Positions 2,893 to 18,044 of a DNA stretch of 32,000 nt are shown piece by piece. The stretch covers positions 253,103-285,102 of the forward strand of contig DXJG01000002.1 of assembly GCA_019056805.1 (NCBI GenBank). The letters run 5' to 3'. The stretch comes from Candidatus Baldrarchaeota archaeon (GTDB lineage: Archaea; Asgardarchaeota; Baldrarchaeia; Baldrarchaeales; DXJG01). Numbering within the stretch: the first letter of the stretch is position 1; each line of letters begins with the position of its first letter. Under the pieces are notes generated by a model. It was not told the origin of the DNA, ran no database searches, and saw only the letters and a program-made list of their open reading frames with translations. The position numbers and the translations under genes were made by a program.

Positions 2893-3186
2893 ATGATGGA
2901 AAATGAATGTCTAATTGACGTTGAGAAACTAGCATCAAAAAGCGAAACATTAACAGATGAACTTGTAGAATTCTTAAAGTTAAAATTTCCAGAATCTGAA
3001 ATTGAAAAAGAAGGAAATAATATCATAGTTAGATCAGAAAGAGCGGTTTCGAAGAGAAAAATAAGATTGTACCTTAAAAAGTTTCTTCATAAAAACGAAT
3101 TAAGTGAAGAGTTTAAAGCCGTCTCGGGTGGAGGTAATAAATTAACTATACTTAAACTTGCTATAACTAAAGAAGAAACCGAATAA
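2893..3186 (+). CDS. rpl22e: Ribosomal protein eL22 (L22e)-like, eukaryotic signature protein
   Basis: IIVRSERAVSKRKIRLYLKKFLHKNEL aligns by eye with the eukaryotic eL22 core [27 protein letters not shown]. Acidic C-terminal tail; 97 aa. Confidence 0.8.
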   Translation: MMENECLIDVEKLASKSETLTDELVEFLKLKFPESEIEKEGNNIIVRSERAVSKRKIRLYLKKFLHKNELSEEFKAVSGGGNKLTILKLAITKEETE

Positions 3187-3233
3187 TCAAATATACTTAC
3201 TCCTTCTTGCGCACCAGAAATAATAGTATAGTA

Positions 3234-3294
3234 GATGTCAGAGTGAGCTGGTTCGTTCATCTGTTCTTACTCGTTGTTCGCTTCATCATCCAAC
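3234..3294 (-). ncRNA. Box C/D guide sRNA (dual guide, LSU rRNA peptidyl-transferase centre)
   Basis: Minus strand: C box ATGATGA (3289-3283), 12-nt guide AGCGAACAACGA, D' GTAA, C' ATGAAC, guide GAACCAGCTCACT, D box CTGA (3241-3238). Terminal stem GTTG/CATC. C-to-D span is 52 nt. Guides are antisense to GUUGUUCGC and GUGAGCUGG. Confidence 0.85.
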
Positions 3295-3501
3295 AAAAAT
3301 CTATTTCTTAACTAAATATGTTTTTCTATAAACCTTTTAATTAATAAAGTAAATTATAATCCTAGTTAATTGACAAAAACTTCTGACATAACCGTTAAAA
3401 CCCAAATTTATAACACTTTGCAACCCTAATGTTTGAGCTATATTAGTGTAACATCTTGAAAATACCACTTTTTATGTTCACATGAAAAATTAGAAACTTA
3501 G

Positions 3502-17974: not shown

Positions 17975-18044
17975 TTTGAGGGATGAGGATATGAGAGTCA
18001 GGTGAGTAGATAAACGATGAACTGAATATCAATCCGACCTCAAA
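17975..18044 (+). ncRNA. Box C/D guide sRNA (probable target LSU rRNA helix 69)
   Basis: Terminal stem TTTGAGG/CCTCAAA and 3-nt bulge GAT. C ATGAGGA (17983-89), 12-nt guide TATGAGAGTCAG, D' GTGA, C' ATGAAC, guide TGAATATCAAT, D CCGA (18034-37). Box deviations are compensatory. TTTAAAA at 17950-56 upstream. Confidence 0.8.

Follow-up and report, generated by a model that had tools for sequence, protein, structure and literature searches.

The nucleotide equivalent to U2552 of Escherichia coli 23S rRNA is a predicted sRNA target in five of the seven archaea surveyed by Dennis et al. (2015), which include species of Pyrobaculum, Sulfolobus, Methanopyrus, Methanococcus, Ignicoccus and Nanoarchaeum; the A loop was called a methylation hotspot in all domains, and helices 90-92 are a hotspot of sRNA targets (PMC4644070). 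In Methanopyrus kandleri, the D' guide of sR17 reads AGCGAACAACCG and is followed by CUGA, and the D guide of sR56 reads ACCCAGCUCACG, also followed by CUGA (PMC4644070). In six Pyrobaculum species, 72% of the sRNAs directed at rRNA are dual guides whose two sites lie no more than 100 nt apart (Lui et al. 2018, PMC6009581). The 25S rRNA of yeast carries Um2921, assigned to snR52, Gm2922, assigned to Spb1, and Am2946, assigned to snR71 (PMC5199042). RlmE/RrmJ of E. coli and Mrm2 and Spb1 of yeast are FtsJ-family methyltransferases that act on U2552 or on the neighboring G2553 (PMC2584109, PMC5199042). No catalogue of Asgard C/D sRNAs was found in the literature searched.

In this study, a predicted box C/D sRNA of 61 bases was read from the minus strand of a Candidatus Baldrarchaeota genome, at positions 3294..3234 of the window, that is, of the whole stretch of 32,000 nucleotides analyzed. 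Most likely it is a real, unannotated guide RNA gene of an ordinary and well-known archaeal kind. We give a probability of about 0.8 to the reading that the element is an independently transcribed minus-strand archaeal box C/D sRNA gene and a dual guide for the equivalents of U2552 and A2577. This reading draws on the box architecture, the complementarity to a 23S rRNA of the same genus, conservation, covariation and the presence of the partner protein genes.

Read 5' to 3' on the minus strand, the sRNA is GUUG-G-AUGAUGA-AGCGAACAACGA-GUAA-GAACAG-AUGAACG-AACCAGCUCACU-CUGA-CAUC. Its whole length (3234..3294, about 61 nt) forms a conserved island with diverged flanks in three congeners. The terminal stem is made of GUUG (3291..3294) and CAUC (3234..3237), which pair as G-C, U.U, U-A and G-C and covary with each other; at 4 bp with one U.U it is short and imperfect in this genome. 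A single unpaired G (3290) separates the stem from box C AUGAUGA (3283..3289), which fits the consensus RUGAUGA and is invariant in all eight aligned homologues. The D' guide AGCGAACAACGA (3271..3282, 12 nt), whose positions 3-11 pair with the congener 23S, is directly followed by box D' GUAA (3267..3270), a non-consensus box invariant in the genus, with A instead of G at its third position, which is k-turn position 2n. The D'-C' loop GAACAG (3261..3266) varies more than any other part of the island: its sequence differs within the genus, and between families its length differs too. Box C' AUGAACG (3254..3260) is again non-consensus, its AUGA and final G being invariant. The D guide AACCAGCUCACU (3242..3253, 12 nt), which pairs through positions 2-10, leads to box D CUGA (3238..3241), a consensus box invariant in all homologues. 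Both spacers are exactly 12 nt under the C'/D' reading that is backed by covariation. The initial annotation of this DNA had described canonical C and D boxes 52 nt apart from the start of C to the end of D, with guides antisense to two words of the plus strand; the boxes are read off the minus strand at that distance, and the plus strand carries both words, GTGAGCTGG and GTTGTTCGC.

Two plus-strand genes flank the sRNA and leave a gap of 315 nt between them; one encodes an L22e-domain protein of 97 aa, with its stop codon 48 nt before the conserved block, and the other a Ras/Arf-type small GTPase of 171 aa. A class I tRNA synthetase of isoleucyl type is found in the upstream neighborhood and two proteasome alpha genes in the downstream neighborhood. 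The L22e and small GTPase neighbors are compatible with an Asgard archaeon, and the data sets listed as containing this locus are DNA from subsurface, marine and vent metagenomes, with no RNA run among them. A candidate promoter was recognized on the minus strand at 3312..3327, composed of a BRE-like purine-rich AGAAAAA (3327..3321) and a TATA-like ATATTTAG (3319..3312). This block lies about 22-35 nt upstream of the predicted 5' end of the sRNA, and the usual archaeal spacing is what suggests its promoter role. A GAAAAA-N-ATATT block is kept in all four genomes of the genus, amid upstream sequence that has diverged.

Searching the whole window against Rfam at gathering thresholds gave a tRNA as the sole match, and a permissive search of positions 3100-3500 returned chance-level hits only (SNORD29 with E = 9.5, SNORD15 with E = 3.6, mir-198 and a CRISPR repeat). 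Thermodynamic folding of neither strand beats shuffled sequences (z = -0.19 and -0.76, the latter for the plus strand), and this lack of excess stability is expected of the C/D sRNA class and speaks against a hairpin-type element. The position of the block 48 nt past the L22e stop codon, together with two plus-strand words identical to 23S rRNA, might suggest that it acts on the plus strand instead, as a 3'-UTR or terminator element of L22e or as an rRNA mimic regulating its neighbors. We regard this as very improbable, since the plus-strand fold is no better than shuffles, the two rRNA-like words stand in the opposite order to that in rRNA, the invariant positions fit the minus-strand C, D', C' and D boxes and the guide cores with their exact 12-nt spacers, and the same minus-strand layout of boxes and guides recurs in four other families. 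The reversed order of the two words on the plus strand also rules out a fragment of an rRNA gene.

The targets of the two guides were tested on a congener, because the genome that carries the sRNA (1.92 Mb in 18 contigs, 91% complete) has no assembled 23S or 16S rRNA; no SSU rRNA was found in the genus. Transfer of the targets from the congener to this organism leans on how strongly these rRNA segments are conserved. The full-length 23S of the same-genus genome G003 (L006, G003:C116:68-3699) was used, whose match of 3632 nt compared with a 2987-position model indicates about 650 nt of insertions, expansion segments or introns. [quoted passage not shown] Positions 2-10 of the D guide form 9 bp with GUGAGCUGG, and position 5 faces the bracketed A of GUG[A]GCUGG, equivalent to E. 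coli A2577. The two targets are 25 nt apart on the G003 23S, as are 2552 and 2577 in E. coli and 2921 and 2946 in yeast. In the congeners, G at position 12 of the D' guide adds a tenth pair with a C of the rRNA, giving 10 bp instead of 9. The target words predicted for the organism's own 23S are GGGUUGUUCGCC and CGUGAGCUGGG. Both assignments had been proposed in the initial annotation by the +5 rule from conserved rRNA sequence of other species, with 9 bp for the D guide, and both hold on the congener rRNA. The yeast equivalents that it named, Um2921 with snR52 and Am2946 with snR71, agree with the table in PMC5199042.

The Asgard guides are near-identical to those of M. kandleri sR17 and sR56 and lie in the same halves and the same register, with the same predicted nucleotides. 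In M. kandleri, however, the guides are divided between two sRNAs, each with a different partner guide and a canonical D' box, whereas one RNA with non-consensus D' and C' boxes carries both guides here. Like the Pyrobaculum dual guides, the Asgard sRNA directs its two guides to nearby sites of one rRNA domain. It had been remarked that one Asgard RNA would cover two sites that yeast assigns to separate snoRNAs; both predicted targets do fall to one sRNA, but the implied novelty does not stand, because dual guides with sites within 100 nt make up 72% in Pyrobaculum and such an arrangement is ordinary in archaea (PMC6009581). The yeast snR52 and snR71 and the human SNORD29 are directed to the same two rRNA nucleotides as the Asgard sRNA, but they are separate eukaryotic snoRNAs, and snR52 also guides Am420 of 18S rRNA. 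SNORD29 aligns weakly to the D half, sharing AGCUCACU before box D (13.5 bits, E = 9.5, compared with a gathering score of 48). This likeness is no evidence of common descent, since similarity of the guides is forced by the conserved target. Rfam gave no match of snR52 type and no family at threshold, which places the sRNA outside the SNORD29/snR71 and snR52 families.

A box C and a box D at suitable distance are rare in this genome, where RTGATGA is followed by CTGA at 46-66 nt in only 48 places over 1.92 Mb. A strict criterion was applied to such candidates, in which each of the two 12-mers had to form an uninterrupted run of 9 or more Watson-Crick pairs that includes position 5, with targets no more than 100 nt apart on the 3632-nt 23S. 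From 200,000 simulations per null model, the probability of satisfying it was 2.5e-5 for shuffled guides, 2e-4 for 12-mers of the genome and 9.5e-5 for uniform sequence, and the expected number of chance double matches over the 48 candidates is at most about 0.01. A looser criterion of 9 bp with one G-U allowed was uninformative and was dropped, because 25 of the 48 motif candidates pass it. Such abundance of chance rRNA matches under loose criteria is what could be said for a functionless resemblance in AT-rich intergenic DNA. This explanation is hardly credible, given a double perfect match within 25 nt at a simulated probability of no more than 2e-4 per candidate, and given bounded conservation in the genus and covariation across families, neither of which is expected by chance; the diverged flanks of the congener loci further argue against assembly duplicates of one sequence.

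The sRNA recurs in each of the three other genomes of the genus, with 88-91% identity over the matched stretch. Conservation spans from the (G/A)UUGG flank to CUGACA and falls off on both sides; the next conserved sequence past the sRNA is the end of the L22e gene, downstream of it, which shows that synteny is kept. Substitutions within the island are confined to position 12 of the D' guide (A to G), the D'-C' loop, and positions 12 and 1 of the D guide, so all of them fall outside the boxes and the 9-bp guide cores.

Among 400 genomes of the phylum, none outside the four of this genus contains the exact two-guide pattern, and a wide scan of genome contigs for the two guide cores with a variable gap gave only chance matches in unrelated bacteria. 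As the exact pattern stays within the genus, a model search and a shorter pattern were needed for diverged homologues. The covariance model R1, built from the four genus sequences, scores 92-98 bits in the genus. A covariance-model search of Asgard relatives, suggested in the initial annotation, was rewarded with a homologue at 45 bits (E = 1e-9) in G004, a genome of the other family of the same order. It reads UUGCG-G-AUGAUGA-GGCGAACAGAAG-AGGA-UUUG-AUGACUG-GCUCAGCUCACA-CUGA-CGCAA, with a 5-bp terminal stem unlike that of this genus in sequence. On the 23S of G004 itself, position 5 of the two guides again corresponds to U2552 and A2577.

The shorter pattern, box C together with the start of the A-loop guide, matched in 21 of the 400 phylum genomes, compared with five control matches. 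With the exact pattern, a clear sRNA was found in four of four genomes of family f1, in the single genome of f2, in six of seven of f19 and in one of five of f16; allowing one mismatch gave five of five in f16 and two of three in f13. The D' guide and its register are constant in all five families, and the D guide wanders. In f19, the D guide covers the same GAGCUGGG segment at a shifted register (equivalents of G2578 or U2580) or lies elsewhere. The f16 genomes share a conserved D guide GGAAGAGCC (L233, L236, L238, L239, L229), which was matched by eye to GGCUCUUCC, a complementary segment of the peptidyl-transferase ring about 50 nt upstream of the A loop. The f16 homologue combines the U2552 D' guide with canonical internal boxes, CUGA and UGAUGA. 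Drift of the D guide across Asgard families resembles that in the sRNA families of Pyrobaculum, whose members retain the interacting region while the precise site shifts (PMC6009581).

Covariation was evaluated on an alignment of eight homologues from three families, over the 4-bp terminal stem and the two pairs of C' positions 5-6 with D' positions 2-1. All six proposed pairs change on both sides and all four pairs of the terminal stem are compensatory among the eight homologues, four of which are close kin, and from which the structure itself was derived. Of the cells, 89.6% are paired, versus 29-56% when the partners are slid by one to three columns, and none of 500 shuffles reaches the observed covariation score. 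The internal motif takes part in this pattern. C' positions 5-6 are AC in this genome, CU in G004 (D'/C' of AGGA/AUGACUG) and GC in f19, each complementary to D' positions 2-1, which gives A-U and C-G here, C-G and U-A in G004, and G-C and C-G in f19. These compensatory internal pairs across families support the reading of D' as GUAA and C' as AUGAAC with a 12-nt D spacer, and the pairing of the two boxes by G-C and U-A put forward in the initial annotation is thereby strengthened. An alternative C' box, CAGAUGA with a 15-nt D spacer, is disfavored by the same covariation; the target of the D guide would be identical under it, since it is counted from box D. A second sRNA of G004 (L207, G004:C38:23420-23600) has the same AGGA ... 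AUGACUG internal pair with different guides, so the Watson-Crick-paired C'/D' variant recurs in more than one sRNA of one lineage.

The predicted internal k-loop contains one G.A pair, one A.A pair and the two covarying Watson-Crick pairs, and both of its boxes are non-consensus. The third position of D' is an invariant A in the genus and is G in other families with non-consensus D' boxes. A G at this position (2n) is normally essential, and with such boxes the D' half could be weak or inactive in methylation. The k-turn Kt-23 of Thelohania solenopsae, which has been crystallized bound to archaeal L7Ae and is described as rare, shares with D' GUAA the replacement of G by A at 2n and an A.A in place of the A.G pair (PMC3985660). 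Unlike GUAA/AUGAACG, which is predicted to be a box C'/D' k-loop, Kt-23 has a closing helix and is one of the ribosomal k-turns.

The guide and the rRNA also change together, with compensatory changes at positions 2551 and 2555. Nucleotide 2551 is U in the genus, where guide position 4 is A, and C in G004 and G312, where the guide has G. The f13 guide, GGCGUACAGC, follows the change in its rRNA, where the A loop is UGUACGCC. The A-loop sequence varies within the phylum, being UGUACGCC in G025 (f13, L007) and G017 (f4, L008), and UGUUCUCC in G010 (f8, L004), instead of UGUUCGCC.

These observations bear on a second way to understand a real sRNA at this locus, in which only the D half guides methylation, at A2577, the degenerate D'/C' motif fails to position fibrillarin, an RlmE-like enzyme makes Um2552, and the D' guide serves as a clamp for rRNA folding. 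The A at k-turn position 2n is in keeping with such a division, as is an RlmE/RrmJ-like gene in the genome itself and in all f1 and f2 genomes, which could install Um2552 without an sRNA. We nevertheless consider it unlikely. No member of the genus deviates in the D' guide core, position 5 stays opposite U2552 in five families, the guide follows the rRNA changes at 2551 and 2555, the Watson-Crick covariation of C'/D' points to a k-loop under selection, and L7Ae has been crystallized on a k-turn that has A at 2n (PMC3985660). Selection for pairing alone could account for part of this evidence. On balance, the D' half is a plausible candidate for a methylation guide, which is why an sRNA with a single active guide keeps some weight beside the preferred dual guide.

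The RlmE/RrmJ-like protein of this genome is an FtsJ-family protein of 203 aa (G000 contig C9:95654-96178) encoded about 4 kb from the Nop5-fibrillarin gene pair. Its best match is the U2552-methyltransferase model rrmJ at 251.6 bits, below the equivalog cut-off of 300 bits. Among 61 sampled relatives, 51 were found to have an RlmE-like gene. None was found in f19 (0/7), f16 (0/5) or f13 (0/3), and these are three of the five families with a U2552 guide; f1 and f2, this genome included, have both. The U2552 guide sRNA, searched with one mismatch allowed, was absent from five near-complete RlmE-positive genomes of five further families. The inverse relation between guide and RlmE-like gene, which was noticed post hoc in incomplete genomes with a narrow search pattern, is a lead rather than a result. 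The wider pattern fits an RNA-guided route able to replace the protein route within the Asgard archaea. RlmE/RrmJ, Mrm2 and Spb1 are protein-only enzymes that work without a guide RNA on the same nucleotide as the Asgard D' guide target or on the adjacent one. Both routes are encoded here, which recalls the yeast nucleolus with snR52 for Um2921 and Spb1 for Gm2922. It is tentatively conceivable, though on the doubtful side, that f1 and f2 have a eukaryote-like split of this snR52/Spb1 kind, in which the guide would methylate U2552 early on nascent rRNA and the RlmE-like protein would serve as a back-up at a late stage or would have shifted to G2553.

Protein partners for a C/D RNP are encoded in the genome, namely fibrillarin (335.6 bits), Nop5 (259.2 bits) and two L7Ae-family ORFs (109 and 86 bits), the Nop5 and fibrillarin genes being adjacent on one contig. 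Once transcribed, presumably from the candidate promoter, the sRNA would assemble with L7Ae, Nop5 and fibrillarin. The 4-bp stem would close a k-turn at the terminal C/D motif, and GUAA/AUGAACG would adopt a non-standard k-loop with G.A, A.A and two Watson-Crick pairs. With both 12-nt spacers base-paired to nascent 23S rRNA, the nucleotide facing the fifth guide base upstream of D' or D would receive its 2'-O-methyl group from fibrillarin. The D' guide is thereby predicted to direct modification of the U2552 equivalent, and the D guide that of the A of GUGAGCUGG, 25 nt downstream (A2577). Holding both rRNA segments together may in addition help the peptidyl-transferase region to fold, in the manner of a chaperone.

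Asgard archaea are the archaeal group closest to eukaryotes, and this study adds a well-supported, unannotated RNA gene to one of their genomes. It also defines a small sRNA family directed to a near-universally methylated nucleotide of the A loop and spread over five or more families of the phylum. Covariation of guide with rRNA and within the k-loop provides unusually clean comparative support for an sRNA known only from metagenome-assembled genomes. The k-loop variant, the guide-target covariation and the coexistence with an RlmE-like gene are modest extras. Knowledge of how C/D sRNAs work is unchanged by the Asgard sRNA. The apparent inverse relation of guide and RlmE-like enzyme, which occur together in this lineage, makes it possible to test protein-only against RNA-guided routes to one modification.

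Further sRNA candidates were noticed in the course of the analysis. A second box C/D candidate lies on the plus strand of the window at 17975-18044 and reads UUUGAGG-G-AUGAGGA-UAUGAGAGUCAG-GUGA-...-GAUGAAC-...-CCGA-CCUCAAA. It is kept in all three congeners and partly in G004, with an invariant D' guide core AUGAGAGUCAG; the C'-like box is GAUGAUC in the congeners versus GAUGAAC here, and G003 and G004 have CUGA as their D box. Other plausible sRNAs of the genome lie at C9:+599074, C9:-293982, C9:-210566 and C17:-103805. A likely dual-guide sRNA was also found on the plus strand of G000 contig C17 from position 237633, reading AUGAUGA-GGUUACCCCCAU-UGAU-...-AUGAUGU-...AGCUCUUGCCGA-CUGA, and its two guides match the congener 23S over 9 bp each, with 21 nt separating the sites.
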